Assembly (NCBI GenBank): GCA_000091205.1
Contig: AP006502.2
Length of the DNA stretch: 64,000 nucleotides
Origin: Cyanidioschyzon merolae
Taxonomy: Eukaryota
Strand: one strand, 5' to 3'
Part shown: positions 544-49,199 of the stretch, one piece after another
Numbering within the stretch: position 1 is the first letter of the stretch
How the letters are laid out: each line of letters begins with the position of its first letter
Notes under the pieces: model-generated
The model's input: only the letters and a program-made list of their open reading frames with translations
Database searches by the model: none
Told to the model about the DNA's origin: nothing
Program-made: the position numbers and the translations under genes

Positions 544-1281
544 TTGTTTCCCGCTAAGACTGCAGACACCTGGACGTCTCTTGCTTCGGTTTCCAACATG
601 GATGGCCCTGCACCCTCTGCAGGGGCGGAGCCTATGTTCCGCCTACCTCAACCACCTCCTCACTTGCAACGATTTTTTGATCCATCGTTCTACACACGGA
701 CTTTCTTCTGTATAGGCCCAGTGTGTCTCTGCTCTGGAGCTGGGCTTGGTCTGGGCGTCGGCTGTGGTGCCGGTATCGGTAAGGGATGGATGCCCATCAC
801 AGCTTCCACATCGGCAGCGGGCGGCGGCCTGGGTGGCTCCGGCGCGTTTGCGTCCCTGCCGCTGGGCTCGATGTTAGGCGGCATTCCCGGAGGCTACTTT
901 GTCCTTGACCTGTTACGCAATGTATTGCGAAAATTCCCCGGTGCACAACCGGGCGTTGGATGCGGTGTTGGTTTCGGATACGGGATCGGTATTGGGCTGC
1001 ATTACGGGAGAGCGGGCGCAGCGACGTTTCGGCGGACTTCCTACTCGGTGCCTAGCTCGGGTGCGTACAGGGCAGGCGGCGAGTACGTTGCACCGCCGCA
1101 GCCAGCAGCACCCGCACCCGCTCCAAGTCCTGATGTTCTGCGTCGCGTGAACGAACTGGAAAAACGGTTACAAAATCTAGAGGAGCGGCTCAATACCCAG
1201 ATTCGGCTATTTGAGCTCGAGCAGCGACTGAATCGTCTCGAACGAGACACAGGCGCGACCGGAAAGAAAAAGGGCCACTGA
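544..1281 (+). CDS. hypothetical protein with a Gly-rich N-terminal low-complexity region (GxGxG repeats) and a C-terminal heptad/coiled-coil segment
   Basis: 245-aa ORF. N-terminal Gly-rich repeats (GLGLGVGCGAGIGKG, GVGCGVGFGYGIGIG) followed by a clear coiled-coil-like C-terminus (NELEKRLQNLEERLNTQIRLFELEQRLNRLERD). GC-rich DNA can generate such ORFs by chance, so support is weak. Confidence 0.3.
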   Translation: MFPAKTADTWTSLASVSNMDGPAPSAGAEPMFRLPQPPPHLQRFFDPSFYTRTFFCIGPVCLCSGAGLGLGVGCGAGIGKGWMPITASTSAAGGGLGGSGAFASLPLGSMLGGIPGGYFVLDLLRNVLRKFPGAQPGVGCGVGFGYGIGIGLHYGRAGAATFRRTSYSVPSSGAYRAGGEYVAPPQPAAPAPAPSPDVLRRVNELEKRLQNLEERLNTQIRLFELEQRLNRLERDTGATGKKKGH

Positions 1282-1302
1282 GGTGAGCAAGTGCTCTCAG
1301 TC

Positions 1303-1332
1303 GACACCGACACCGACACCGACACCGAGACC
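1303..1332. repeat. (GACACC)n hexanucleotide microsatellite
   Basis: gacaccgacaccgacaccgacacc followed by a degenerate unit gagacc, immediately after the stop codon of the ORF ending at 1281. Confidence 0.9.
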
Positions 1333-2184
1333 TGTGCCGCTCGTGTTGATTTACATTTGGTGGATTCGCAGCACCGGATCGGTTGCTTGATTTGCATCAA
1401 CTGAGCCAGAGAATGGCAGCGCTCCAAGTAGGTGACATGCATACACATGCGCTGTTTGGAAATGTCGTGAGCGGATAATACGGACGATAGACATGACGCC
1501 ACATATAGGCTGAAACAGAGCGCTTCATCAGGTATCTAAAATAGGCACTTAAAGCGTTTACCAGTCACTCGAAGTACTATTTGAGAATATGGGATAGATG
1601 AAACGAAGCAGAGGTTTCTTGATGTGCGAACGCTACCAGTCGCCAACTTAGGGGCCCGAGCTCTCCCGCACACGCTCGCACGTGCGACTGGCCAAGAGCA
1701 CTGTTTTCCCCAGGAACAGAGGTTAGATGCAGGGAGTCCAAGCGTGTCCAGGCGACTGCACACGCTTGCCGCAACCCTGTATCGCTACGGAACCGGAAAC
1801 GTTCGCTGCTCGTCACCGATGGTTGCTGTTCGGGTGTAGTCGCTACCGGGACCCCTCAGAAACGCCATGTTTCAGCTTATTACAAGAAATCGCCCCTAAT
1901 TGTCCAAGCTTGTTGGCTCCTCATCGAAACCAAAAACAACAACCGATGCATCTAGCCGCACTTTCCTACGCTCCTTGGTTCATCTCCTCGTTTGTCCTGC
2001 TGCTCGCATGCCCGCAAATGCAGGCATGCGAGCACTTCCTACGAGCGTGTCTGTTCCAGGTCGTATGGCCGCGGGTATCCATATGCGCGTGCACGTGCAC
2101 ATACGAGCCTTTGTGTGCATATCCCGGTGCATATGCGTCTACATATACGAATGCGTGTTCGCGCGCACGGTGGACGTGCATCCC

Positions 2185-3138
2185 CTAACGAAACGACCTC
2201 GATTCATGCGACAGAAACTCAACCATGGGTGCCCATAGAAATTCCCGCTTTTCCAAGAACTCAGACAGCAACCGGTCGAGATCCTGGCAGATTTCTTCAG
2301 GTAAACAACACCGACGGTCGCCAATCTCAGAGAACGACAGCGTCTCGCGCTCATAGTTCGCATGAAGCCTCTTGATCTGGTCTTCATTCATGATCGATGT
2401 GCGGCGGTACAGATCTCTCGGCAGGAGTGCTGCGATCGTACTCTCAAACCGAGATGGATTCTGAACGAACTCATCGTAGTTGATAATATCCCATATATCG
2501 CTTGGCATTTGTTCCAACTGCTTGCTGAGATACAGCAGACTCTCTTCCGCAACTCGCGCCAGATAGAGCGGATCCAGTGACTTGCTTCGAGAGGATGTGT
2601 ATTGAATACAGCGCAGTGGATCGCGCCATAGAACCAGGATTCGCAGGTCAAGCACACCTCGTTGGTGCAAGTCGAGCAAGACCTCGAGATCCGGGCGCCT
2701 AGCTGGCTCCCGCTCCGGCCCAATGGGAAACGTACTCACTGCATCAAGGATGCACGGGGTGCGTCGGCTGGCAGACACCAAGTGCTGGTCTTGCAGGGCC
2801 AGCTCCAGCGACTCGGAGAAGAACTTGGCATATCGGTGCTTCGGGTCGTCGCCGCCATCCAGGTGCAAATTCGGATCCAGTACCTCGGTTGTTGCGCAGG
2901 GTTTCAAGACTTCGCGGAGAGTGCCGTGCCCGGCGCCCTCGATGCCAGCAATGAAGAAGTACAGGGGGCGACGTGTCTGGCCTCCGATGAAGATCTCTTC
3001 GACACGGAAGTCGTCGGAGGACCGCCTTGATCGAATTACTAGTACCAAGAGCAGACCAAGTGCGCAGAGGCAGAGTAGTAACGCTTTTCTCTGGCGCTGA
3101 GTCCAACCCCGCATGAAAGTTGAATAAAGTTCGAGCAC
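2185..3138 (-). CDS. type II membrane protein, sulfotransferase-like (P-loop-like GxxGxGT and RDPxxR motifs)
   Basis: 317-aa ORF. N-terminal signal-anchor (LLLCLCALGLLLVLVI). FFIAGIEGAGHGTL resembles a 5'-PSB/P-loop. LWRDPLRCIQYTSSRS resembles the sulfotransferase 3'-PB RDPxxRxxS motif. Functional call is tentative. Confidence 0.5.
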   Translation of the reverse strand: MLELYSTFMRGWTQRQRKALLLCLCALGLLLVLVIRSRRSSDDFRVEEIFIGGQTRRPLYFFIAGIEGAGHGTLREVLKPCATTEVLDPNLHLDGGDDPKHRYAKFFSESLELALQDQHLVSASRRTPCILDAVSTFPIGPEREPARRPDLEVLLDLHQRGVLDLRILVLWRDPLRCIQYTSSRSKSLDPLYLARVAEESLLYLSKQLEQMPSDIWDIINYDEFVQNPSRFESTIAALLPRDLYRRTSIMNEDQIKRLHANYERETLSFSEIGDRRCCLPEEICQDLDRLLSEFLEKREFLWAPMVEFLSHESRSFR

Positions 3139-3524
3139 GGTGTCCGTTGTGAACGTTTTAGGGAAAACGGCTTTTCGACAATATGCCGCGTGCGATGCAG
3201 CAGTGCGCGCGCCGCGCTGTTTGGCGTTCGGCGCGATGCCTCCGCGCCCAGCACATTACGGACGTTTTGGTACGCTCATGCACAAGTGCAGCGCGATCAG
3301 GTACACTGCCTTGTCGCACGCTTCCGTGCTACTTTACATGGAGAGATCCGAGCTTCCTGCAGTCAAATAGATTCCCGACGAACGTACGTTTTCACTAACC
3401 AATCTCAGAGATCCATGCATCCTATCCATACCGCATGTGTAGCTTGCCCGTACGCGAAACGCTTCACAGATGGCACTCGCAGCATATCCTCGTGGATCGG
3501 GTTTGCTCGCACTCACATGATGCG

Positions 3525-4294: not shown

Positions 4295-7243
4295 TCGGGC
4301 GACGTCACCGCACCTCGGGGCTCGGTGTCGGGCCGAACGCGGCGGATTCCGGTGTGCAGCGCCGAGTGCGAAAGCGCTGCCCGCACTGAGCCGAGGAATG
4401 AGGCCGCCGACTGGTGAACGGTGTTGCAACACCAGTGCTGCTCGCCGGTTCATGCGTCTTCTCGAGGTGAGCGGTTGACGACCATTGGCCTCGTCCGTGT
4501 CTATACCCGTGCTAGATGAACATGGAACGCTCAAGTGCTTGCTCTGATCCTGGTCTGCGCATTGTTTCCGAGCTTTCTTGGATGTACATTCTCGAGCGTT
4601 GAAGTGCATCAGGAGAGGCTGGAGGATTCATCCGTAATTTTGGGATTCTCGGTCGTTGCTCCCGAGTGGTGCCTTCGACGCGTTTGTCGCTGGCACTTGT
4701 TGCGTTACCGGAATCAAGACGGTTATCGACGATCTTGAGCAAGTGGTTGCAACATATACCATACACTGATTCCATCTATACATGCAAGCTTCCGCTCTTC
4801 TCCTTGACCTGCGCGTGACTGGCTGGCTTCCGGCCTGCTTCAAGTATTCGAGCTTGCGCTTTCAAGACGACTCGCGGGCGCAGGAATCCGCTTAGCTGGA
4901 TTGGTGTGAAAAGACATTCGGTGTCGAATTTTGCGCATTATTCACCAGCTGATACCGAATATTTTATTTCACTTTCCACGTCAAATAATCGATTCCGTTC
5001 CGAAGAAAAATCTTCCTCTGTTTGTGGCGAGCAACGAATTGGCATTCCACCGCAGCACGATGCCTCTTCCGTGGTATGCTCTCGGGCGCTCCGGTCTCTT
5101 CTGTTAGCATGCAGAAGGGTAGTGGGCTCGGACTTGGTCATCGCAGCGCTCGCTTCCTATCGCGAGTATATCATCGCTTCGCGTGGAAGAAGTGTAGATG
5201 GATCGAAATTTTTCGACGCCCCGCCTAGCCTAGGTTCCTTTCTGGTCCTTGATTCATCACGGGTAGCATCACGTTCCGCAAATCCTCAAACGAATGGAAG
5301 AGCGTGCCCTCGCGCATGGAGTGTACAGCGTATGCACCGAGGAGATACCCAGAAGAAGCCCATGATATCAGGGTACAGCTTGGGTCAAGAGGCACGAAGA
5401 AGGGCATCGAGGGGAACCTGCTGTACGCTTCAAGCGCTTCTACCGAGCGATGAAGCAAGCGTTCGTGCGCGACAGAGTCACGCTCGGAGGAGTTGGTATG
5501 GTAGCCATGTTGGAACACCTGACCACGATCAGGTGTCATCGCTGCGAAGAGCATACTCAGGCTGTATACAAAAAGATGGAAATGACAAGTAAAGCATAGC
5601 CTGCAACTACTGCCTGTGCATGCAATGTGTCGACACCGGCCCAAAGCGGCGAAATCGGGATTTAATTGCTGCCATGGAAATCATTCGGATGATGACAGCT
5701 GAGCTGGCGATAAAAGACAGACCAGCGCATCCAAAGCCGCGGGTAGGAGAGACAAAGGAAGCAGTCGCAGAACAAGTCCGCAAGGGCTTGTACTGATGGC
5801 AGCGAAAACAGACCCAGGCATTCGCGTGTACGCCCGAGTTAGAGGATACGTTCCATTCTATACTGATACGGGTGTAGAACGCACGAGCGCGTGCGACTAC
5901 TGCCCGTGAATAGAGCATAGCAGGGCGCGCGCAGGCACCAGAGCGTGTGCTCGGGAACTTTATGGTCAGTGGCTTGGCGGTCTCGCGGAGCAGGAAAGCC
6001 TCCATGGGCTCCTGCTGCCGTGCGCAAGGACCCGCCGATTTCTCTGGGCTTTTCGCCGTCTTGAGAAATGCGCATGCCTGCGCAGCGTAACTGCGTCTGT
6101 TGCTACAACAGCCTATCAGTAAACAGGAGGATGATGCATCATAATCACCAAATCGACTTGGTTTCATTCAGGGAATGATGGTATCGGTGCTTTCGAGTTA
6201 CACTTTCGACTAGAGAGCGTACCGGAACGAGCGACAGATACAGTGAAGTATCGCCGCGAACTACAAAACCGCCTGTGTATAGCGACGGCATTCAACAGTT
6301 TTTTTTGAAGTAGAATCGACGATGCAAACCAGAGATTCCCGGATGCGTGACGGTTACTGGCAACCGCAGAGCCCGTCGCAGCGCCGACCCCGACCCGCTC
6401 AGGTCCATTGGCCCCAGAACGAACATTTCTCCCGAAATAATGCATCGTTCAAACGATCTCCTGGGCACCGAGCATACCATGTGCGCCATTTGTGGCGTTC
6501 CAGACATCCTCCCGACACCGAACGACATTGCCATCCTTTTGCGGGCGTCGAACGACGGCTTCCGTGGGTGCGAGGTCGCTGCTCCTCGTGCACAGCATCC
6601 TTCACTCGTGTTTCCATGGCGTACGGCCCATACGTCGTATCAGATTCGCTTACAAAACGGTAAAGATGCCGCGACTTTGGTGTCTTCAGGGCCAGGCACC
6701 CACGCGTCTCTATATGGATTCGTCTGGGTGCAGAATCTTGTGAGCGAACCAGCGATCGCCGAGTGCCTCTGCTTCATGGCAGGCGTCGAATCGAGTGCCG
6801 ACTCCTGCACGGGCGATGGTGAGCCAGCCGCCACCGGACCATCTTGTCCAAGTTTGGCGATCTCGATTGGGTGCCATGTCTGATTTATACATTAAAATAC
6901 ATACTTGATCTTCATTGTCTAGGTACGTGTCCTGCGCAGAGCCCGCTACACTTCCAGTGGATCGCTGCGCTGCGGCGAAAGCTTCGCGAAGGCATCTAGA
7001 ATCTCAGGCCGTTTCTCGAGAAGCGCGCACCGAATAAGATTCTGTGGCCAGGATGCAGCGATCGATGCACACTGGTATGACTTGTACAGACTTGTACAGA
7101 ATAGGTCGACTTGGAACGCTGCTGGTCGATATCGGCGAATGGAAGTTTCGAAGCGCGCCGCATAGCGCTGAGCTCCGGTTACTCGAACTGGGAAGCTACG
7201 CAACGTTGACTGTTTTCAGAAGGCTTCCCGGGTCAAATAAGAG

Positions 7244-17696: not shown

Positions 17697-20600
17697 CCAC
17701 ACACGCATCCAGTTCTACTTCATCGGCGGCAACGTCGGCTGCGTTCGACGATCCATCGTGCGCGCTGCAGCGAGCGTCGGCATCCGAAGTAGCACCGCGA
17801 ACTGCGTTGTAGGCGTTCCAGGCTCTGCTTTGTATGCCGTCGTCTCATCGCTTAAAGGCGGGAACCGTTTACGTGCTTGACTAGTGGAAGCGCACGCGAT
17901 CGAATCTGTCACCCAAGCGCTGGGAAGCGTACGCGTGGATGCCAATGCCCGTAACGATGCGCTGATGCCTCGAGCGCCATGCCTGATGCGCTGCCAATGT
18001 CGGTGGCGGGTCAGAACCAATACGAACCGTCCAATGGACGACGCTATGCACAAAATGGAACGCCACGGCATCCGCTGCGCTCCGGCGGCGCCGTTATCGC
18101 TGCATCTATCTGCATGATCGATATGAACGAATCGAGTGCGTTCCACTCCGAGCAGCGAATTCTAGAACACGTGCACCAACACGCCTTTTTGATTTTGTTT
18201 GTTTTCCTCGCATGTACGCAATAAGAGCATCATATCTTGTGCCTAAGAGAATTGTCGCGGAAAGACTCGATGCTGTCGCTGCTATCGTACGAAAATCGGC
18301 CTTAGTTACGCAAGTCAGTGCTTCCACGTTGAGCAAGTAGATCGACGACCCGCGACTAGTCCCTGTGCTGGATGTCGCGCACCCAAAACAGAACGTTTTA
18401 AACGCTTTCTACGAGACTGCATCCAAGTCAATCCAGTTCACCCCGAAGTTCTCGTACAAGTACCACGAAAGAATCTATAGGACATGAAGTTTCTTTACGG
18501 AGCATACGAACGATAATAAGGAGACACGATGCTCAACGAGAAGCGCCCGCCATTACATGAGACCATGGCACCTTGAACAAAATTTCTATGTCTTTCTTAC
18601 TAAACAAGAACGCTGATTACAGGAGAGATGCGTCTTCAGCTCACTCGATGAAATATCGTTGAGCAAATATAGTAGATATGTACATTGATTCTCCAAGAGC
18701 CTTCATGTGCTGTTGGTAAAGAAGAGCTATGCGGGCACGCGGACAACATCATCCCTATCGGGAATTCAATCGCGTGGTCGCCTACAGACTGTTACGCGGT
18801 TAGGATTCTTCAATACCTCAATCTTCCTCGAGGAGCCTCCTGCCTTATTTCTGACCTGCTCACAGACAACGTGGTTTTCCATCACTCAAAAGCGGTAAAG
18901 CAGCTCGCGGTTGAGAAGAAGGCGGAGCTCGACCTCATGGGAGCGAGTCCTCCCTGGTTCAATCCCGTACAAGGCGATTTCTCTGCTGCGAAACGCCGTT
19001 TTTGCGCTTACGGATTCGTAGACGATTCGTTCGCATCGGTGACACGGAAGCGCAAACGGCGCTTCTGTGACAATTCATTCTCTACACTCGCCTTGATGGA
19101 CCTCATCGCGCAGCGGATGTTAGGAGTTCCCCACGCAGGGCTATCCGCAGTACACATTCCGCTGTAGGTTATGGAGCAAAGCTGCGTGCACGGCCATAAT
19201 TGCTCCTCGGCAAACAAGAAGCAGTACTGCTTGACTGGGGCATCACAGCGTTGCCTATACGCTTCCAAGAATCCCTTGGAATGTCGCCGTGCCACCTCGG
19301 CAATCGGCACATAGACAGCGCAGGTTCCAGCAAGTATTCAACGAACCTGAAATACCAGAATCTTTCGCAGGTCGGTCTCGAGCACTTCATGAGGTGCAGC
19401 ATTTGGACACGCCACCTTCATATTGCTGGCAAAGAAAAATCGGGACTGACAGAGCGATGCTCGGGGTGTTCATGGGCGCAAATAACGAGCTGATGGCGAA
19501 TGGGCTCGACGTGCTATCGAGTTCGGAAGCGGAGCCACAGCGAGAGCGAGAGAGTCGCTTTGGATCGTCCAAGCGCTTCGCGCAGCTGTGAACCCCGAAG
19601 CTACCAACGAAGTATGCAAGGCGTAATTGGAATGCCATATCTGCTTTCCTCTGATCTTGATCGACTATGTTATCGCGATGATGGCGCTACAGAGCATGGG
19701 ACACGCCCGACCCGGATCCGTGCGCCCAAGTCTCCACATGCGTCCATTTGATGTGGTCCAGATATGGCCAATCCACACATATGGTACTATTACGAGTGAT
19801 TCTGTGCTGTATATGCTCTTTAATGGCTAACCATGGTCTCCACAAGCAACTATGAAGCATTAGAAAACTCTGTGAAGAATGTTCGCGTAGCTCGTTCAAG
19901 GGATCCCTTTTGCAGCGAATTACATGGAAAGAAATTCTCATGGACGATAGCGATCGATAGAATATCGATTTGCGTTCATGCGGCAAAGATCTGGGCCTGT
20001 ATCGAGCACCGGGACGCATGCTCATTCATTCAAGGTTGACGAATATGGAGACAATGTGGCGGGCGTGAATCCCGAGTCCAAGGGCTCTCGGGCGTCGCCG
20101 TCCCTCCAAGTCAAGAGGACGGTGCCAGAGACCTGAACGGAAAGCAGATGAAGTCGCTCAAATTTTCCAGGACTCGCGATGATTGCGAGTCGGGCGCTTC
20201 AGACTCTGGGAGGCACACAAACAATACAAAGTGCCTGTCCATGGATCCATCTCGACGCTTTGAGCACCACATCGAGCGGAGAAGCACGTTTGTTTAGGCT
20301 TCATTCATGCAGTAGATCAGCGTCCAGATGTCTCACACGAACGATCTTTGGAGAAAGCAGATGAGACTGCGCTGCGCTGCGCTCGCCAATGCTCTCTGTT
20401 CCACGAAGGCAAGAATCGTGCATTCGTAACTCGGTCTGTGAATTGGAAAAGCATGCGAACGCAAAATCGCGTTGTTCCGTAATAGCATGTGGCGTTCTAT
20501 GTGCTGTGATACCCGAGAGCAGCACTCTCACTCGTTCAAGCCGAGCGTTTAACGAGTGCAGGAATCGGTTCCGCACGATTCCCATCCAAGAGTTCCAGAT

Positions 20601-21780
20601 GGCATCCACGCATACCGAACACTTGTGCATGATGAAAAAAGTTGAGAAGAGGAGCGTCTGACAGAGCCGAATGCATGAGATAGTACACGGTAAAATGAAC
20701 GAACTTCAGATGGCGAGGCGATCGAAAACGAGCGGCTTGGTGTATTGTGATTCCACCAGAGATTCTGTGCGCAAGCACTTGTTTTACACCGAATGTTTAA
20801 CGCCTCGATCAAGAGTCCGAAATATGTTTTACTCCAGTAGCGTCCAGTGGGTGTATAGCAGGCAAATTTTAGAGAGAAGCATCTAGAATTGAGAGTGTGC
20901 CAATTGTCGAGGCGATGAAGACTTGCATTAAAAAACTTCGAGGCCACGGGAGAGGCAATTGCATTCTCGTATGGAGCAAGGCAGCGGTATGGTAGGGGTC
21001 GAAATTCCAGAAAGACCGGGACGCTGCGTACACGCACCGTAAAACGCTTCCACGTCCAGTTGGTAAACGATAATCATGTTCCACCTTTACGTATTACCGA
21101 ATATAAACATTCATTGCCCTTACCCGCCGGAAAAACGCGTATCGTATGGTACCGTCGAGAGCGATGCCAAGTCGAGTTTTGTGCAACAGTCTCTGGGCAG
21201 CTTGCGTGACCTGGGCTTGATGTCTTCGATGCGATCGCTTCTGGCCGGTACGCTGTACACCGAATAGTCGAGGCGAGTCGCAGGTGTAGTACGCGGGCTG
21301 CGATTCAGGCTCGGAATCACCAGCGGCGAGAGCAGCGCGTTCTCGTGCCGCCACGCAGCTTCCGTGTCCGGCGGGATGCTGACGTCGCACGGCAAAAGCA
21401 CAGGCGACGTGGCGTCCAGTGGCATGATGCCCGAGAACCGGAAGCATTTATGCCCTCAAAGCTGGTGCAGTTGCCGGGAATCTTCTCCGGAGCAGCAGAT
21501 CATCGCCTATGCTGTAGGCGTGTTAACGAATGCTCACAAATGCCGTCCAGAATATCTCGATGGGCAAGCAATCCACATCATCCTCTGAAAGCGCGGGTCA
21601 CTGCGCAGGATCGTCTCCCAGCAGGATGTCGGCAGCGCACTGCTGTCCTCGCCTCGCTCGAAGCGAGCATTCACCCAGAACCAGGGTATGCAAGGACGTC
21701 GTGACGGACACTGGGCGTTGCGCTGAAGCCTCCGCTGCCGATTGCATCGCGCCCAGCGATGCAATCGGTACCGAACCGCT

Positions 21781-29630: not shown

Positions 29631-30186
29631 GCCACTGGTAGTGCTGGAGGTGGCCTCTTTGATAGCATGCTCACGTGCGCTGGAACGCAACCTGCGCATT
29701 TTAAAATGAAGCGGGACGCGCCTGTCGCTCCATCATCTCTTCGCGTTTTCGCAGCGTCACTGCGGGATGATATGCCCAGCCTACGCAAAAGAGCATGCCC
29801 ATTGATGCCCTGTGCCTGCTCATTTCATATGATACCGAAACAGGCACCAGCGAGTGCTTGTGAATCTCTTCGCGGAGCTTTCCCATTCAGGGTAAAGGAA
29901 AATGGTATTCAGGCCCATGTACGCCGCGACCAATTTCCTATAGTCTTTCACCCCAGTGGTGTTGTGCACCCCCAGGTGCGGTCATCAAATGCGTTTTAGC
30001 GGCTTATAGCAAATGCATTCAAAGTGCGTTCGTTTGAAGAATTAAAAAATTCGAGGGAAAGCCATGGAGATGTAAGTCGGGGATCCCGGAAGGCCGTCAT
30101 CGCCGGCAACCCGGAAAACAACAACCGAAAAATCCCCATCTCGTCGACCACTGAGCGAAAAAGAGCGAAAGGCGAGGAAAAAGTAG

Positions 30187-30603
30187 GGAGATAGTCCAGA
30201 AAAGGGGTTTGCCCCACGGAACGACGCTGAGTCTGTAGTGGCACACAGGGCACGCATTCGAGGAATCCTTGCACTGGTGAATTCAGCCAGCGGCACTGCA
30301 CGCAACGAGTTCATCAACCGAGACTTTGACGCTGCCATCGATATCAGACGATGTGCGGTGCTACAGACGAGACACGAGGACCCGTCATAATCCAGGTTTG
30401 TGCAGCAGCCTCTCAGGCTCGAAGTGTGCCTTGATAAACTGAAACCGACAGCAGGCGGCTGGTCACAAAAGACTCGGAGGCGTCTGCGCGTGCGTACATA
30501 CAATTACCCTCCATGGTCTTGGGTCATTTTTGGTATCATGGACGCTGCATTTATAATCCGGTTATCTTTGATGGCGCCCAACACGACCACGAACATGAAC
30601 TGA
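30187..30603 (+). pseudogene. TnpB/Fanzor-like nuclease C-terminal fragment (copy 2), frameshifted
   Basis: Frame 1 reads ...HRARIRGILALVNSASGTARNEFINRDFDAAIDIRRCAVLQTRHEDPS*. This aligns with copy 1 (...RRAKVRGLLALVSTTIDGKKHMEYVNRDCNAAINIRRCAVME) across the RuvC-III motif. Homology continues downstream in another frame (EVCLDKLKPTAGGWSQKTRRRLRV vs KAELYETKFEAEVRGRFKKTGRRLHV). No RuvC-I/II upstream. Confidence 0.55.
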
Positions 30604-31959: not shown

Positions 31960-33027
31960 TCTCTAAACCAGTTGCACGGTATGCACTGCCTACTCGACGA
32001 CTCGGTGAACTCTAGTCTCCGGCAACGGTTGGCGAGAAACGCTGCGCACGCTTCCGCACGACCAGGACATTGCGGATGTCGTTGAAGAGGCGCGTGCTGT
32101 AGCACTGCATACGCGGAGGCGCTTCAGTAAAGCCTGATGCGAACAGCTCTCGTCCGTTTACGAATAGTGCGGGACTTGTATGAATAGCTTCGGTAGTCCC
32201 TGAGCGGAAAACTTGCGACTTGATTGAGCAGCTGTGTTGTTCTGCGTTCGAAAGGCTCGGAACGGTTGTAAGCACCCGTCAGAGCGCGAGCTGCGACTGA
32301 CAAGCAGGTTGCCTTTGGTTTAGGTATCGACCACCGATGCAAGTGCTGGGGCTTGCACATCTCTGGCAGAGCGCCGAGGCGGTACCTCGGTAGTGTCTAA
32401 CACGTTCGCACTCCGGGGCAGTGGAAACGGCCCTCGTGCGTATCCGTCAGGGCTCTTGCTCTCGCCGCAACTAATGTAATGGAGAGCAGGTTCGAAGACC
32501 ACAAGGGTTTTTGAGTGTTGCAGGGAAGCTGTATTGTCTTCAGAGAAAAAGAAAAATGTCTACGAAGAAATAGAGGCTGGAGCACTTGTAGTTGGTCCGT
32601 CCGCCTTCTTCTGTCCATGGGAACAGAGCTCTACCCTCGTGTCAGGCTAGAATAGAGCACTGGCCTATTTGCGCTGTTCCTACTTTTCGATTTCTCCCTC
32701 AAACTTTTCTAGATGCACAGCTTTGACATTCGAAGCGCACCAGTGAGGGCATACGAATACAAACGTAACTTCAGGATTCTCTGCCGCCTGTTGTGGAGAG
32801 GCTCTACTGACCCTTTGCTGCTGGGATTCATTTTGTCACCGGATTCAAGATGGTTTGCAATGCCCTTGAACAATGGATCGTAAAACAAGCGATATCATTA
32901 TCCTATTTTATCGTGCAAGATTCCACGCTTCGCCATGACTTGCGTATAAAGCTTGCTCAAAGCACGAATTCTTCAAGTTTTCGATCTATGATTTGTTTCA
33001 TCTCATGGGCGGGGCAAATCGCCTTGT

Positions 33028-33579
33028 TTGACTGGTGAGGAAAACAACTCTACGTCGTCCCCAGATGAATATTTCATGCGCTCGTGCCGCATGTTCACTG
33101 AGCTGGTCACGTCGAATGATCGATTCCGCCGAAAAGCAAATCTTCCTCTGTACGTGACCATCGACGAAACGGCATCCGCCAGCACCATCAAGATACCACT
33201 CACAAGATACGCATCACGAGTCTCTCATCTCTTCTGTGTGCCTGAAGAATGGTTAAGGACTCGGACACCAGTCATCGAAACGATCGCTACGAACGGAGCG
33301 TACATCCACTTTCGGAACCGGAAGCGCAGATTGATCGAAATTTCTAGACATGAACTCCAGACTGGATTTTCGTTCCGGTACTTTTTTCCATATGGACGAT
33401 ATGAGGAATCACAAATTCATGATTGCATGGAACAGCGCGCACTTCCATGTGCAACTGACCGAGTAGACGACGTGGGGATCGCCCAGACAAAGCCATTGCT
33501 TGTAAGGTCTAGCGCTGGGCACCAAGACGCAGGAGGGTATCGAGGCGAGGCTTTTGCACCTGGGAACGGTATGTGCTGA
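33028..33579 (+). CDS. ORF encoded inside the inverted repeat; putative N-terminal region of the adjacent Fanzor/TnpB-like gene or a separate unknown protein
   Basis: 183-aa ORF in frame 1, the same frame as the downstream Fanzor-like segments. Ends at TGA where the paralogous copy has TGG and reads on, so this copy looks truncated. No recognisable domain. Confidence 0.4.
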   Translation: MTGEENNSTSSPDEYFMRSCRMFTELVTSNDRFRRKANLPLYVTIDETASASTIKIPLTRYASRVSHLFCVPEEWLRTRTPVIETIATNGAYIHFRNRKRRLIEISRHELQTGFSFRYFFPYGRYEESQIHDCMEQRALPCATDRVDDVGIAQTKPLLVRSSAGHQDAGGYRGEAFAPGNGMC

Positions 33580-33626
33580 GTGCCGAAGCCAGCGTCGACA
33601 CTGTACGGGGCGGTGCTCGCAGGTGG
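33047..33626. repeat. left arm (near-identical core) of a large inverted repeat; partner at 37636-38216
   Basis: Direct comparison of the sequence with the reverse complement of 37636-38216. The encoded peptides differ at 3 of about 175 residues. Homology continues at lower identity (roughly 65-75%) outward to about 32.9 kb and inward to about 33.80 kb. Confidence 0.85.
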
Positions 33627-33753
33627 ACATTTGGTGGGCGTTTGGGATCACCTGAACATAGTCAGGTATCCCGGCTGCGAAAAGCGCACCTGAGCTGCAT
33701 GCAAGGAAGAGGAGCACGGTAATTGAATACTAGATCGTATCTTCCGACTGTTC

Positions 33754-34017
33754 ATGAAAGACATCGACAACAGCGCGAAACTGTACAATCGGTTTCTTTA
33801 CGCTGCCATTAGCATCCTTCGATTCCTGAAGACGGCGCTCGAGAAAAACAAGAGACCGGCGTATTTGCAGCCAGAGATAACAAGAGGAAAAAGAAACTGT
33901 CACAAAACAATCCCACACAAGCTGGCGTCGGTGACAGTGGGAAAAACCAAAAGTTTCGCGTGTACCACCGAATTAGACAGACGACGTCCGTTCCACTCTA
34001 GTCTGACACGGGTCTAG
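33754..34017 (+). CDS. Fanzor/TnpB-like nuclease, N-terminal segment (copy 1), ends at an in-frame TAG (34015-34017)
   Basis: Frame-1 ORF MKDIDNSAKLYNRFLYAAISILRFLKTALEK... Homologous to the inverted remnant MQCVDSCRQQPTRDSNAAIRILRLVPMQ at 37374-37556 (-). Separated from the next segment by a single stop codon. Confidence 0.45.
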   Translation: MKDIDNSAKLYNRFLYAAISILRFLKTALEKNKRPAYLQPEITRGKRNCHKTIPHKLASVTVGKTKSFACTTELDRRRPFHSSLTRV

Positions 34018-34029
34018 TTCGTTGACGCG

Positions 34030-34281
34030 GTGAAGCATGAAGATGAGAAGGAGGCGGATCCTTCGACACAGAAAGTGCATGAGAACGACTTTGTCGTCAG
34101 TGCGGACCCTGGAAAAACGAAAATCGTAACCATCGCAGCATCCAGGCGTGCAGAAGATGGCACTGACGGTAACTTACGTCAGAAAGACATGCGTCTTTTG
34201 ATGTTCTCGAGAGCGAGATACTTCCGAAAATCCGGTATAATGAATGCAAGGAAGAAAATTGTACGTGGAATGCAGGAATGA
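34030..34281 (+). CDS. Fanzor/TnpB-like nuclease, RuvC-I segment (copy 1)
   Basis: Frame 1. FVVSADPGKTKIVTIAA matches the RuvC-I GxDxGxxxxxT motif (catalytic Asp codon at 34105-34107). The frame is lost between 34173 and 34280, where frame 3 takes over. Confidence 0.55.
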   Translation: MKHEDEKEADPSTQKVHENDFVVSADPGKTKIVTIAASRRAEDGTDGNLRQKDMRLLMFSRARYFRKSGIMNARKKIVRGMQE

Positions 34282-35018
34282 AGGACCACCTTGAAGCTTT
34301 GAGCGAGGTGACGAGCCGAGGAGCGGACTTTGAAGCGTTTCGGAAATTCATGGAAGTTCGCGTTGCGCACTGGGATGCGCTGTGGGAGGATTATACCAAG
34401 CCCCGGTGGGCTCGTCTGCGTATGAATCTGTACTGCGGAAAGCAGCGTGCATTTGCGAACTTTTTCAATGAGTTGAGTGCCTTGAAGGAGGATGAAATTC
34501 AGAGGCTCGTAGCAGCGTACGGAGCAGGGCGCTGGAAGAACCGAAAAGGGACTACGCCAGCTCCAACGACCAGAACATACAAAGAGTGCGCACGGCGTTT
34601 CGTTACGATAGCTTTAGATGAGTCCCGAACGTCCTATACACACCATGAACTCGGGTGTGCGCTTCAGAGAGTGGACATGGAAAAGCGCCAGCGGAACCCT
34701 GAGGATATGAAAAAGTACGGACTGCTGACGGAGGAGCAAATGGAAAGGCGAGCGAAAGTTCGTGGACTACTCGCATTAGTAAGTACAACTATTGACGGCA
34801 AGAAACATATGGAGTATGTGAATCGTGACTGTAATGCCGCTATCAATATAAGGAGATGTGCGGTGATGGAGGAAAGACCTCCGGCGTTGACACGAGAGAA
34901 TTTTATGGGGCAACCTCTGAAAGCCGAACTATATGAGACAAAATTTGAAGCAGAAGTTCGTGGCCGGTTCAAAAAGACGGGTAGGCGTCTGCACGTCAGT
35001 CGGAGACGTCTAGTCTAG
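34278..35018 (+). CDS. Fanzor/TnpB-like nuclease, RuvC-II / degenerate zinc finger / RuvC-III segment (copy 1)
   Basis: 246-aa ORF. VTIALDESRTSYTHHELGC is the RuvC-II Glu (34619-34621) followed by a degenerate TSxxCxxC finger. EYVNRDCNAAINIRRCAVM is the hallmark RuvC-III motif (Asp at 34827-34829). Basic tail RFKKTGRRLHVSRRRLV. Confidence 0.7.
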   Translation: MKDHLEALSEVTSRGADFEAFRKFMEVRVAHWDALWEDYTKPRWARLRMNLYCGKQRAFANFFNELSALKEDEIQRLVAAYGAGRWKNRKGTTPAPTTRTYKECARRFVTIALDESRTSYTHHELGCALQRVDMEKRQRNPEDMKKYGLLTEEQMERRAKVRGLLALVSTTIDGKKHMEYVNRDCNAAINIRRCAVMEERPPALTRENFMGQPLKAELYETKFEAEVRGRFKKTGRRLHVSRRRLV

Positions 35019-35068
35019 GGCGCGTCGCTCGCCACTACTGTACACGGTCGGCATCGTTCGACTCTAGA

Positions 35069-36097
35069 ATGGCGTTCAGCGGAAGTTCGCCTGAGCGAGA
35101 GCGCTCTGGGAGTTGGATACCGAATGGATCCGAGTCCTTTTTCGGGAGTGAAGGATCAGAGGCACCTGAGGGCGCTGAAGGTCTGGGCACCGTATACACA
35201 CCGGTGCTCAATGCGGCCCAACGAGCGAAACTAGAAGCGCTTTCGGAGCTGGTGCGCTCTGCCGCCGAACTAAATCTCACGCCGACCGAAAAGGCCTGGA
35301 TGGATGAGGCGTGCCTATCCCGGTTTCTACGGGCGCGACGATATCACGTTCAAAAAGCGTTCCGGCAGCTGCACGAAACGATTGTGTGGCGGCGCAGTTT
35401 CGGGGTAGAGCAGTTGATGCTCGATCCCGAGCTCGCGGACGTCAAGCGCCAGTCTGAGACCGGCAAGTTGTATGTGCACGGTAAAGACCGGTTTGGTCGA
35501 CCAGCAGTCTTCATGAAACCGCGACTGCAGAACACCAGTGAGCGGAAAACGGCTCACGAACAAATGAGGCAGCTTGTGTACACGCTCGAACGAGCTGTTG
35601 CGGAGATGATGCCGCCAGTCGAGAAAATCTGCCTCGTGATTGACTTTCCCGGTTATTCGTTGCGAAATGCACCGTCTATTAAAGTACAGCGACAGACGTT
35701 GAAGATTCTCCAAGACTACTATCCGGAGCGCTTAGGATTCGCTGTTTGCATTGATGCACCGGCAATTTTCTGGACATTTTTTGAGATTGTCAAACCATTC
35801 ATCGATCGGCGAACATCCGCAAAAATACAGTTTTGCAGTCGAAAGGCGAAAGAAGGCACCAAACAAAATATGCGGACGCTGATGAATCAATTATTTGACC
35901 CAGAGGCGCTGGAAATCGAACTCGGCGGGCGAAGCGCTTGGCGATACTCCAATGAGGAATACTTTCGCGAACGAGTGCTTCCTGAGTATTTGAGAATTAA
36001 ATCCTATCCAGAGCGCGTGGAAATGATTCCTTGTGCTGAGGAGGACGTTAATAATACACAGGACGTTTTCTACGACAGCATGAGCTGCCTCGATTGA
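35069..36097 (+). CDS. Sec14-like phosphatidylinositol/phosphatidylcholine transfer protein (CRAL-TRIO domain)
   Basis: 342-aa ORF. CRAL-TRIO N-terminal helices (ACLSRFLRARRYHVQKAFRQLHETIVWRRSFG) and lipid-binding domain (GKDRFGRPAVFMKPR...ICLVIDFPGYSLRNAP...ERLGFAVCIDAPAIFWTFFEIVKPFIDRRTSAKIQF). Confidence 0.8.
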   Translation: MAFSGSSPERERSGSWIPNGSESFFGSEGSEAPEGAEGLGTVYTPVLNAAQRAKLEALSELVRSAAELNLTPTEKAWMDEACLSRFLRARRYHVQKAFRQLHETIVWRRSFGVEQLMLDPELADVKRQSETGKLYVHGKDRFGRPAVFMKPRLQNTSERKTAHEQMRQLVYTLERAVAEMMPPVEKICLVIDFPGYSLRNAPSIKVQRQTLKILQDYYPERLGFAVCIDAPAIFWTFFEIVKPFIDRRTSAKIQFCSRKAKEGTKQNMRTLMNQLFDPEALEIELGGRSAWRYSNEEYFRERVLPEYLRIKSYPERVEMIPCAEEDVNNTQDVFYDSMSCLD

Positions 36098-37373
36098 GTC
36101 CAGCACCACAGGGCCCCGTTGATTTTGCTGTTTACTTGTTCAGTGGGCAAACGAAGCGCTGATAGAATCAGAGTCCTTCGATATCATGATCTGCGTAGCG
36201 TACATCGGTCGTTGGAATTCGTGCGTAGGGAGGATCAGCGACGCTCGAGATACCACGCTCGATGGATATGGAGTTCGATCAGATTTCCGATACGGTATGC
36301 TCTTGACGGATGATGATCAGCGCTTCGAGCTATGAAGGAAATATCGCTTATCAATGATGCGCAGTGTTCGGTTTTAGGCGCAAGGTGCCTGATCATGGAG
36401 CGTGCAGTGGATTCTACTGCACGCAGAGCGATTCGGAATGGTTTTTGAGATGCCAGCACGGTCGCAGCAGGCACTCCTAGAGAATGGTGATACCGAATGC
36501 CGATATGGCGCAATGTGACGACACGAATGTATTCGTTTCGGATGATCTCGGTGTGCACGTCAGAAGCGATCTCGCAGGATGCAACTCGCTTCGTGCGGAT
36601 GTATTGCGCAAGCCGCGGCGCGTTTCAGGAACGACTTGCGTGGGCCCATTCGCAAAGTTTACGAAATCATGCATTGTGCCCAATGCTCGAGTTCCAGCTT
36701 CTAGGTGCTGCAGTCGAACGCCACTCCTGTATCCAGAGAATCATGTTCGGAGGCATATCGAGCTGGCTGTACAGCGGTCTCTTCAAGACGAGTTTTATTA
36801 AAGCCACTGAGTGCATTCGCAAGCCGCTTCGTTTATTTGCGAGCCGCCCAGGTCAACCTTTTTTCAACTCATGGCCTCAGCGAAGTTCATCGAAAAGACA
36901 AACGGGCGCGGGGACACCCCGCAGCACCTACATGGGTACCGGCTTGGAAGCTTCTTGTCAAATAAATTGCGGTACTCGTCATTCGACATCCAGCAACGTC
37001 ATAGATAACGTTCCTGTTGGAAGCTGCGCTCTCGATGGAGTCCGCATCCCCTTTTCAGGTTCCGGAAATTCATGTAAAATAATTTTCCGCGAATAACGCT
37101 CTGCGGACCACGCCTTATCCGATAGCACGTCGAGGCAGGAATCGCGTCGTGTTGAAAACGCAATATGCTCATCCGAATACAAAGCTGAATATAACCTTAT
37201 ACAGTGTGACATAGCTGCTTCCACTCGAATATTGCTACACCTGTGTCAGCATAAATTGGAACGTATTCACTTGGGCAACTCGGGCCTGCTCACTAGAGTC
37301 TAGGTGTCTTCCAATTGTTATCAACACTAGGCTTTGCGGGCTCGTTATCCAACTACCTTCTTTTCCTCACTCT

Positions 37374-37556
37374 CTAACCTCTCAACTTATAACACATCGG
37401 CCTCTCCGTGTCATGCCGCTGCATTGGCACCAGTCGCAGGATCCTGATAGCGGCATTCGAGTCCCGAGTTGGCTGCTGACGGCAGCTGTCGACGCATTGC
37501 ATGCACCGACGGAAGTTGCGACCGATGCCCCGCGTCCCATGTTCATCTATTCGCAT
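37374..37556 (-). pseudogene. remnant homologous to the N-terminal segment of the Fanzor-like gene (inverted copy); body downstream is lost
   Basis: MQCVDSCRQQPTRDSNAAIRILRLVPMQ aligns with MKDIDNSAKLYNRFLYAAISILRFLKTA of copy 1. Nucleotide homology with 33700-33800 is visible (cttccgactgttcatg vs cttccgtcggtgcatg). It is followed by AT-rich non-coding sequence. Confidence 0.4.
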
Positions 37557-38256
37557 GGAGCCGCAATGCGCTGTTCGCAGTGCAGACGCACCTGACTACG
37601 GTCAGCTGTTCCCATTTGTGCACGAGCACACCTGCTCCACCTGCGAGCACCGCCCCGTACAGTGTCGACGCTGGCTTCGGCACCCAGCACATACCGTTCC
37701 CAGGTGCAAAAGCCTCGCCTCGATACCCTCCTGCGTCTTGGTGCCCAGCGCTATACCTTACAAGCAATGGCTTTGTCTGGGCGATCCCCACGGCGTCTAC
37801 TCGGTCTGTTGCACATGCAAGTGCGCGCTGTTCCATGCAATCATGAATTTGTGATTCCTCATATCGTCCATATGGAAAAAAGTACCGGAACGAAAATCCA
37901 GTCTGGAGTTCATGTCTAGAAATTTCGATCAGTCTGCGCTTCCGGTTCCGAAAGTGGATGTACGCTCCGTTCGTAGCGATCGTTTCGATGACTGGTGTCC
38001 GAGTCCTTAACCATTCTTCAGGCACACAGAAGAGATGAGAGACTCGTGATGCATATCTTGTGAGTGGTATCTTGATGGTGCTGGCGGATGCCGTTTCGTC
38101 GATGGTCACGTACAGCGGAAGATTTGCTTTTCGGCGGAATCGATCATTCGACGTGACCAGCTCAGTGAACATGCGGCACGAGCGCATGAAATATTCATCT
38201 GGGGACGACGTAGAGTCTTGCTCGTCGTCAATGCAGTAGAGCGATTTGCCGTACAA
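37543..38256 (-). CDS. paralogue of the repeat-encoded ORF 33028-33579, longer (237 aa) because TGG replaces the TGA of the other copy
   Basis: About 98% identical over 175 aa to ORF 33028-33579. Reads through 47 more residues, then is frameshifted relative to the downstream homologous segment. Confidence 0.4.
   Translation of the reverse strand: MYGKSLYCIDDEQDSTSSPDEYFMRSCRMFTELVTSNDRFRRKANLPLYVTIDETASASTIKIPLTRYASRVSHLFCVPEEWLRTRTPVIETIATNGAYIHFRNRKRRLIEISRHELQTGFSFRYFFPYGRYEESQIHDCMEQRALACATDRVDAVGIAQTKPLLVRYSAGHQDAGGYRGEAFAPGNGMCWVPKPASTLYGAVLAGGAGVLVHKWEQLTVVRCVCTANSALRLHANR
37636..38216. repeat. right arm (near-identical core) of the large inverted repeat; partner at 33047-33626
   Basis: Reverse complement matches 33047-33626 with very few mismatches. 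Flanks diverge on both sides. Confidence 0.85.
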
Positions 38257-48155: not shown

Positions 48156-49199
48156 ATGGAAAGTCTGGCTCGTTTGACACCTTTATATCCAGATCGCGCT
48201 CTAATTGTTGCAGTGACGGGCGCTGCTGGTCAAATCGCGTACTCGCTTCTTCCGCTTCTCGCGTCGGGTACGGTGTTCGGGCCTCAGCAGCGGATCAAGC
48301 TCCAACTGCTCGACGTGCCCGCAGCAGAGAGCGTTTTAAAAGGCGTCTGTTGTGAGCTTGAGGATGGCGCGTATCCGCTTCTTGATCATCCGGTGCTGTA
48401 CACGTCCGTTGCTGATGAGGCTTTTGCCGGTGCAGACATTGTTGTGCTGCTTGGATCGTTTCCTCGCAAGCCCGGTATGGAGCGGAAAGACTTGTTGGCG
48501 AAAAACGGTACCATCTTTCGTGATCAGGGGCAAGCTCTGAATCGCGTCGCTAAAGCGGACGCGCACGTGATTGTTGTGGGCAATCCCGCCAACACGAATG
48601 CCTGGACGCTTTCGCAGTTTTGCACGAAAATCCCGAAGGAGCACATCACCGCGCTCGCCCGGCTTGATCACAACCGCTTAAAGTCACTGGTCGCGAGGAA
48701 ACTCGACTCTGCGGTATCGGACGTCCACAATGTGATTATTTGGGGCAACCACTCAGCGACGCAATACCCGGACGTGACCTATGCCTATACCCCGCAGATT
48801 GTACAAGGAAAGATGCGGGCGGCACTCGGAGGCGATTCGCAGCTCGCTTCGGAAGTGATTCCTTTGATTCAAAAGCGTGGTGCTGAGGTACTTGCGCTTC
48901 GCAAGCTGAGCAGTGCCATGTCGGCGGCGAAGGCCATCGGCGACCATCTGCGCGACTGGATGTTTGGCACCCAAACGGAAAACGAGATCGTCAGTATGAT
49001 TGTGCCTTCGGATGGGAGCTATGGTATCGACAAAGGTCTGATGTTCGCGTTCCCGGTCCAGTGTCATCGTGGTGGCAAATATAGAATAGTTTCGGATCTT
49101 CGTATCGACGATTTCAGCCGCAAATACATTGAGACAACGCTTGCTGAGCTGCGCAGTGAACGCGAAGAGGCCATGCGCCTGGTCTCTAAGATGTGTTGA
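48156..49199 (+). CDS. MDH1: malate dehydrogenase, cytosolic-type NAD-dependent
   Basis: 347-aa ORF. VAVTGAAGQIAYSLLPLLASG, VVGNPANTNA, ARLDHNRLKS, IIWGNHSATQYPDV and KLSSAMSAAKAIGDHLRDW align almost residue-for-residue with human MDH1. Confidence 0.92.
   Translation: MESLARLTPLYPDRALIVAVTGAAGQIAYSLLPLLASGTVFGPQQRIKLQLLDVPAAESVLKGVCCELEDGAYPLLDHPVLYTSVADEAFAGADIVVLLGSFPRKPGMERKDLLAKNGTIFRDQGQALNRVAKADAHVIVVGNPANTNAWTLSQFCTKIPKEHITALARLDHNRLKSLVARKLDSAVSDVHNVIIWGNHSATQYPDVTYAYTPQIVQGKMRAALGGDSQLASEVIPLIQKRGAEVLALRKLSSAMSAAKAIGDHLRDWMFGTQTENEIVSMIVPSDGSYGIDKGLMFAFPVQCHRGGKYRIVSDLRIDDFSRKYIETTLAELRSEREEAMRLVSKMC

Follow-up and report, generated by a model that had tools for sequence, protein, structure and literature searches.

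A probable Fanzor1 transposon relic, truncated and decayed, at the annotated start of a SEC14 gene in Cyanidioschyzon merolae

The stretch of DNA analyzed here, 64,000 nucleotides of Cyanidioschyzon merolae contig AP006502.2 (assembly GCA_000091205.1; hereafter the window), holds coding sequence for a TnpB/Fanzor-type RuvC nuclease directly beside the annotated coding sequence of a SEC14 gene. A first-pass annotation, made from the letters alone, had described three open reading frames (ORFs) at this place, 33754-34017 and 34030-34281 in frame 1 and 34278-35018 in frame 3, and had read them as the spliced segments of a near-full-length nuclease gene. The ORFs are there, as are the quoted peptides FVVSADPGKTKIVT, VTIALDESRTSYTHHELGC and EYVNRDCNAAINIRRCAVM, and the motifs DPG, DE[F/S]RTS and NRD follow one another in the right order. 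Profile search, fold comparison and alignment to the protein CMe-1 bear out the nature of the sequence, which encodes a RuvC domain of the TnpB/Fanzor type in the nuclear genome of a eukaryote. What lies between 34019 and 35075 is very probably a dead, 5'-truncated and neutrally decaying copy of the element CMe-1A, the relic of a Fanzor1 transposon (Table 1).

CMe-1A is a published element. Bao & Jurka (2013, Mobile DNA 4:12; PMC3627910) described a single Fanzor1 family from C. merolae. Its carriers are the CMe-1A elements of about 3 kb, some 150 in number, each matching the consensus at about 80% identity, with no terminal inverted repeats and with target-site duplications left undetermined. 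The supplements to that paper give a consensus of 3,169 bp and a CMe-1 protein of 734 residues encoded by a single exon, and its authors regard the 5' 635 bp of CMe-1A as an independent element. CMe-1, whose consensus ORF spans 906-3110, is the sole gene of CMe-1A. The blastn alignment of window positions 34026-35074 with CMe-1A 2117-3169 has 4 gaps and an identity of 87.7%, and the repaired, frameshift-corrected translation matched CMe-1 residues 407-734 of 734 at 84% identity (275/328). The window copy shares family and organism with the published element; it differs from it in comprising only its 3' third, in being frameshifted and in carrying mutations at conserved residues. The family is also visible beyond the published set. 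A large protein database search returned 216 unnamed homologs at 70–80% identity, a pattern typical of multicopy families, and metagenome contigs contained at least 106 related stretches, the best 80 of which we kept as loci for the locus-based counts given below.

The breakpoint of the copy is sharp. Across the 80 related loci, alignment depth climbs from 0–1 to over 75 near 34015 and falls to zero past 35075; the 84% identity to one of these loci (L002) starts at window position 34019. Family members matched the window by tblastn with E values of about 1e-149, and for the longest homologs the match was limited to 34018-35057, lying in frame 1 as far as 34260 and then, from 34263, in frame 3. 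The N-terminal 400 residues of the family found no similarity anywhere upstream, even with relaxed tblastn. The copy thus keeps the C-terminal 45% of the protein, its RuvC half, and is missing the N-terminal 55%, the REC/WED half. With just the 3' third of the element present, and this C-terminal portion of the protein, the description as near-full-length fails: homology starts at 34019-34026, which is consensus position 2117 of 3169 and residue 407 of 734. Two of the three segments in the earlier reading (34030-34281 and 34278-35018) do derive from Fanzor. The remaining one, 33754-34017, was considered as a diverged N-terminal Fanzor region and rejected, since relaxed tblastn finds no such similarity; it belongs to a different dispersed repeat at about 32650-34017, which recurs in diverged form at about 4900-5880 of the window and, in other contigs, at unrelated positions. 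In family members an acidic unit some 25 residues long (KHEDEKEADPATQEVQDNDFVV) stands in one to six tandem copies between the WED strand (TDGV) and RuvC-I. Its copy number varies (as in homologs P0001, P0013 and P0004), the repeats are disordered in the AlphaFold (AF2) model, and the breakpoint of the window copy falls within the last of them.

Table 1. Parts of the CMe-1A copy in the window (window coordinates)
Feature	Position	Strand	Remarks
5'-truncated CMe-1A copy	34019..35075	+	last third of the element, consensus ~2110-3169 of 3169
Frame-1 coding remnant: last acidic repeat and RuvC-I FVVSADPGKTKIVT, Asp codon 34105-34107	34021..34260	+	~CMe-1 residues 403-482; tblastn, blastp
1-bp deletion shifting frame 1 to frame 3 and cutting RuvC-I off from RuvC-II/III	34261..34263	+	extra base in 85/87 aligned family copies
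Frame-3 coding remnant, containing the 246-residue ORF 34278-35018	34263..35018	+	CMe-1 residues ~484-734
Stop codon (TAG) of the frame-3 remnant	35016-35018	+	
Non-coding 3' terminal module, element end at 35075	35019..35075	+	~40-copy alignment; published consensus ends at 35074

What lies between the two coding remnants is the loss of a single base pair at about 34262 and not an intron, and the spliced product proposed earlier does not hold. We tried to rescue the frame change by splicing: the only GT..AG candidate (34263-34277, 15 nt) leaves an in-frame TGA when it is removed. Only about 27 introns occur in the whole C. merolae genome.

Comparison with a sister strain indicates that the copy is decaying. 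ENA metagenome contig L001 carries the same locus and aligned to window 33541-38124 without gaps at 98.8% identity; since the alignment is gapless, the sister strain carries the same lesions as strain 10D, including the 1-bp deletion. Between the two, the Fanzor fragment differs by 14 nonsynonymous and 4 synonymous changed codons, or 18 substitutions per kb, and the adjacent SEC14 gene differs by 3 nonsynonymous and 6 synonymous codon changes, or 8.7 substitutions per kb. No purifying selection on the fragment's coding sequence was seen in the comparison of 10D with L001, and by these substitutions the fragment evolves neutrally between strains. An intact gene of about 734 residues was found in none of the 80 related loci, where the longest open frame reaches 594 residues; this fits an old, decayed family. 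The exact product of the 246-residue ORF is absent from the protein collection, so the ORF is not an annotated gene. Lacking the REC/WED half and with its RuvC domain split, the window copy is not expected to have nuclease activity, and it probably makes no functional nuclease. The substitutions are unevenly spread: 7 of 19 between 10D and L001 cluster in the 67 bp around RuvC-III (34806-34872). At the amino-acid-changing sites of this cluster, M34809V excepted, L001 has the consensus-like R, F and F and 10D the derived H, Y and C. Gene conversion between copies or a cluster of mutations could be the cause.

Direct searches did not place the sequence in a known family. When the window ORFs and their concatenated translation were scanned against Pfam, no match rose above the gathering threshold and none was to OrfB_IS605, with OrfB_Zn_ribbon-type models likewise below threshold; an NCBIfam scan of the window translations returned nothing, and neither did Pfam for the close homologs. 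The Cas12f1-like_TNB model PF07282 aligned to 11 window residues (NRDCNAAINI, at the end of the model) with 12.7 bits against a cut-off of 26.3 (E = 0.14). PF26935, or DUF8286, appears among precomputed annotations, and a literature search on either name found nothing. Against the PDB, no Fanzor or TnpB match came from phmmer with the window translation or from hmmsearch with a shallow family profile whose members are about 75% identical.

Depth of sampling made the difference. A deep profile search of 1.84 billion representative proteins recovered 1,408 relatives, many of 600–700 residues, and matches in the PDB came only after this search had added relatives at 50% identity or less. We built a profile, A3, from a 60-sequence alignment of the deep relatives with the window ORF included. 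It matched Fz1 of Parasitella parasitica (PpFz1, 9cf0; E = 1.2e-20), of Spizellomyces punctatus (SpuFz1, 8gkh; 2e-13) and of Guillardia theta (GtFz1, 9cer; 1.8e-5), with alignments spanning the FTGxIxTDGV strand, DPG, [VI]DEFRT[ST], RGLL and NRD. Ten of the 60 members of A3 also matched PF07282, the best with E = 3e-5. The profile test of the concatenated translation thus came out negative against Pfam and NCBIfam directly and positive for the deep family profile against Fanzor1 structures.

Structure prediction followed the same course. A first AlphaFold model from a shallow alignment reached a predicted local distance difference test score (pLDDT) of 31 and was discarded. With A5, a deeper alignment of 69 proteins that includes columns aligned to PpFz1 and SpuFz1, AF2 modelled family member P0006 at pLDDT 81.9 and a predicted template-modelling score (pTM) of 0.77, only the acidic repeats being disordered. 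The fold test was made on P0006, a relative with a complete RuvC domain, and not on the broken window copy. In a Foldseek search of the PDB with this model, the top seven matches were Fanzor1 proteins, with SpuFz (E = 1.7e-11, template-modelling score 0.57) followed by PpFz and GtFz; after these came Cas12o, the TnpB of ISDra2 (8h1j, E = 1.4e-3) and Cas12b/i/CasX. The fold comparison suggested by the first-pass annotation therefore favored its assignment, with Fanzor1 ahead of Cas12 and TnpB. On aligned sequences and a predicted model, the D/E/D resemblance is one of homology to Fanzor1 and not of chance.

The CMe-1 family shares with SpuFz1, PpFz1 and GtFz1 the WED 'TDGV' strand, the DPG of RuvC-I, the RGLL motif, the NRD of RuvC-III and a non-acidic canonical RuvC-II position combined with an alternative Glu in [VI]DE[FY]xTS, at an identity of only about 11–18%. 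In the CMe-1 clade, unlike these three proteins, RuvC-I is preceded by tandem acidic repeats, a helical segment of about 35 residues is inserted between the Glu and NRD, and the CxxC...CxxC zinc ribbon is missing. With the TnpB of IS200/IS605 elements (ISDra2, 8h1j) and with Cas12f it shares the RuvC fold and the C-terminal NRDxNAAxNI that forms the end of PF07282. It differs from IS200/IS605 TnpB in its eukaryotic host, its lack of a TnpA partner, its rearranged Glu and the much larger N-terminal half of the intact protein.

The catalytic residues of the RuvC site can each be assigned. The RuvC-I Asp lies in SADPGKT and is encoded by GAC at the position given in Table 1; its DPG is nearly invariant across the wider family. 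The canonical RuvC-II position is non-acidic (LVAAYGAG), and the alternative Glu lies in LDESRTS, with Glu present at this column in all 69 proteins of A5. This is the rearranged RuvC-II described for Fanzor proteins, in which the canonical site is non-acidic and an alternative Glu precedes the first zinc-knuckle position by six residues (PMC10530073, PMC10711439). The RuvC-III Asp lies in NRDCNAAINI, is encoded by GAC at 34827-34829 and is kept in 65 of 69 proteins. Both Asp codons agree with the earlier annotation, which had put the Glu codon at 34619-34621, one base off from the actual GAG at 34620-34622. Several conserved sites in the window copy have changed from the consensus: GADPGNT to SADPGKT, DEF to DES, EKCQR to EKRQR and NRDF to NRDC.

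The zinc ribbon of the family is remodelled. A C4 zinc finger between the Glu and RD is part of the motif of Bao & Jurka (PMC3627910) and of the regular expression of Yoon et al. A canonical C4 ribbon (CxxC...CxxC) is absent at this place across the clade, in the 69 proteins of A5 and not just in the window. At the first ligand position His occurs in 34 of 69 proteins and Cys in 4, at the second Asp or Thr, with Leu in the C. merolae family, and at the third Cys in 47 of 69, again with Leu in C. merolae; the fourth column is deleted. In the window and its C. merolae relatives the region reads THHELGC...EK[C/R]...RGLLALVSTT. The peptide TSYTHHELGC, earlier called finger-like, does sit at the position of the first CxxC knuckle, and the canonical cysteines are missing from it, leaving a degenerate knuckle. 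Loss of the ribbon covers the whole Fanzor1 clade that includes CMe-1 (the 1,408 relatives in the representative library), in which the Glu and the RuvC-III Asp are still conserved. As far as the aligned sequences tell, the missing C4 ribbon is a clade-level deviation from the textbook motif and does not overturn homology.

The 3' end of the element is precisely defined. About 40 distinct copies share an exact terminus, TAG(stop)-GGCG..CGCC-ACTACTGTACAC..GGCGT-CGTTCGA-CTT-TCGAACG-GCGT, beyond which flanks are unrelated; T follows it directly in 38 of 39 copies, and the flank then continues G/T-rich and A-poor. In the window the subterminal hairpin is degraded, reading CGTTCGA-CTC-TAGAATG-GCGT where the consensus has CGTTCGA-CTT-TCGAACG followed by GCGT. 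The window end is of this CGTTCGA...TCGAACG type, in contrast to the published consensus end of type GCGTTTTTCTTTTGAAAGGCG, and both variants are present among the related loci. In the family at large, the hairpin forms a perfect 7-bp stem, which G-U pairing can lengthen to 11 bp on the sense strand alone (for example L005, L051 and L032:1258-1497). Complete elements among the relatives measure about 2.65–2.75 kb. Their 5' ends are modular, at least four groups of unrelated upstream sequence being joined to a common core near CGCACCTCGGAGATC. Examples of these groups (L005 at about 1270-1335, L010, L068 and L006) echo the independent 5' 635 bp of CMe-1A (PMC3627910).

Conservation is high over the last 95 nt, which include hairpins. 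Two loci (L017:276-515 and L013:225-464) have only about this much of the element, from GGAAGCGTCTGCACGTCAG onward, with unrelated sequence upstream; they may be non-autonomous derivatives, or the 3' module may be the minimal cis element. Since the omega-RNAs of Fanzor elements come from the 3' end, we looked for structural conservation in the last 240 nt. RNAalifold gave no consensus structure (-2.2 kcal/mol), and covariation in the three visible hairpins (82.6% of cells paired) did not exceed that in shuffle controls; in dead copies descended from a master element, compensatory changes would not be expected in any case. Rfam had no match for the element's 3' end.

By analogy with the characterised Fanzor1 enzymes, the ancestral intact CMe-1 would have been an RNA-guided nuclease. 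An omega-RNA from the 3' end of the element would direct the single RuvC site (D-E-D, the Glu being the rearranged one) to double-stranded DNA, which would be cleaved beside a target-adjacent motif, and such cutting would help the element persist. How the family moves is a more speculative matter. It may do so in a way that would be new for Fanzor-only elements. The lack of a transposase gene, of terminal inverted repeats and of apparent target-site duplications, the exact hairpin 3' end with its T flank, the swappable 5' regions and the detached module of about 95 nt led us to consider one-ended, strand-specific transposition, either rolling-circle/HUH-like or assisted by Fanzor and omega-RNA. 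The 3' module would be its sole cis requirement, in a clade whose zinc ribbon has been remodelled with His/Asp/Cys in place of C4. We rate this proposal as unlikely.

Other readings of the locus fare worse than that of a dead CMe-1A copy. That the D/E/D pattern arose by chance in ORFs of an unrelated family would agree with the empty Pfam, NCBIfam and PDB searches made with the window translation or a shallow profile, the best direct Pfam match being Umbravirus_LDM (E = 4e-4, below threshold). That match scores 20.3 bits against a curated cut-off of 25 and spans 46 residues of the helical insert, whereas the deeper profile and the fold search hit Fanzor1 specifically and the translation is 84% identical to CMe-1; these results refute the reading, and the probability left to chance is negligible. 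A near-full-length and potentially functional Fanzor/TnpB gene, spliced from three ORF segments into an active OMEGA-type locus, would account for three co-linear catalytic motifs in a sequence that is indeed Fanzor1. Refuted by the alignment to the consensus, it is exceedingly improbable given an unrelated first segment, a protein cut down to residues 407-734 of 734, a frame change caused by a single-base deletion relative to 85 of 87 copies, a TGA after GT...AG removal, a published gene of one exon and a neutral substitution pattern. No support was found for a working OMEGA-type nuclease locus in a copy that is 5'-truncated, frameshifted, neutrally evolving and one of about 150 decayed ones. 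Domestication of a truncated protein, with the 246-residue ORF 34278-35018 expressed as RuvC-II/III only and serving a non-nuclease role such as nucleic-acid binding, draws on an ORF that is open both in 10D and in the sister-strain contig and on a conserved position beside SEC14. Strains only 1.2% apart would be expected to share an open frame through common descent; the ORF has 11 nonsynonymous against 3 synonymous codon changes and evolves at twice the rate of SEC14, its product would be without the RuvC-I strand and its Asp, and it is unannotated in the reference proteome. We consider domestication very unlikely. Several points nonetheless weigh against our preferred account of a dead relic of a once RNA-guided nuclease. 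The comparison between strains comprises 18 changed codons in all; the 246-residue ORF keeps its ATG and is open in the sister strain too (P0014), and a truncated product is conceivable; the mechanism is carried over from Fanzor1 relatives at about 12–18% identity; and CMe-1 is without the canonical zinc-ribbon cysteines.

One further possibility is compatible with a dead copy and concerns the neighboring gene. The SEC14/CRAL-TRIO ORF at 35069-36097 is an exact match to C. merolae 10D BAM83510, as is the cytosolic malate dehydrogenase (MDH) ORF at 48156-49199 to BAM83512. The annotated SEC14 ATG (35069-35071) sits within the last 7 bp of the element, and no non-element DNA separates the element from the annotated coding sequence. 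Since the element ends 7 bp into that coding sequence, the annotated ATG and the region immediately upstream are element-derived. The sequence around the ATG is AATGGCGT in the window and AACGGCGT or AAAGGCGT in other copies, and all seven members of the SEC14 cluster begin MAFSGSS. These features raise the prospect of an exapted regulatory relic, in which the 3' end of the element supplies the core promoter, 5' untranslated region and start codon of SEC14. The evidence for this is positional, and the next in-frame Met, some 76 residues downstream and just before CRAL-TRIO_N, could be the real SEC14 start; exaptation is possible, if rather improbable. On our reading of the locus as a dead CMe-1A copy, it is probably inert sequence that contributes at most the immediate upstream region of SEC14, including the annotated start codon.

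The surroundings are rich in repeats. The window holds five fragments of the Fanzor1 family, the four beyond the present copy being older: 29939-30491 and 20061-20787 on the plus strand, and 39762-39221 and 54157-53673 on the minus strand. The fragment at 29939-30491 resembles an internal-deletion derivative, joining CMe-1A consensus 786-963 to 2851-3088, and the other three have 25–50% protein identity to the family consensus. An inverted repeat of 615–650 bp, with arms 95–96% identical and 4 kb apart, flanks the Fanzor fragment together with SEC14 (33013-33627 and 37636-38250, or 33047-33688 and 37567-38216 by blastn). It is neither TE-N2_CMe nor CMe-1A, has diverged copies at about 4977-5660 and in a few metagenome loci, and carries in each arm a long, probably spurious ORF (33028-33579, plus strand; 37543-38256, minus strand). 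We considered whether this 640-bp repeat might be the TE-N2_CMe 5' module of CMe-1A, with 33047-35075 then being an element that had suffered an internal deletion, and rejected the idea: the window has no match to consensus 1-635, and the upstream repeat sits at unrelated positions in other loci.

The Fanzor1 family of C. merolae, CMe-1/CMe-1A with its roughly 150 copies, was published in 2013 and has been available from then on in libraries of the Repbase type, and this copy is no novelty. As a relic it shows the RuvC half of a nuclease, with all three catalytic motifs, outlasting the death of the gene, and it shows how a motif-level reading overestimates the completeness of a gene. Of possible interest to transposon specialists are the hairpin 3' end with its T flank, the modular 5' ends, the loss of the zinc ribbon and a host start codon placed in the element terminus, which we describe here as matters of the family and not of this locus.

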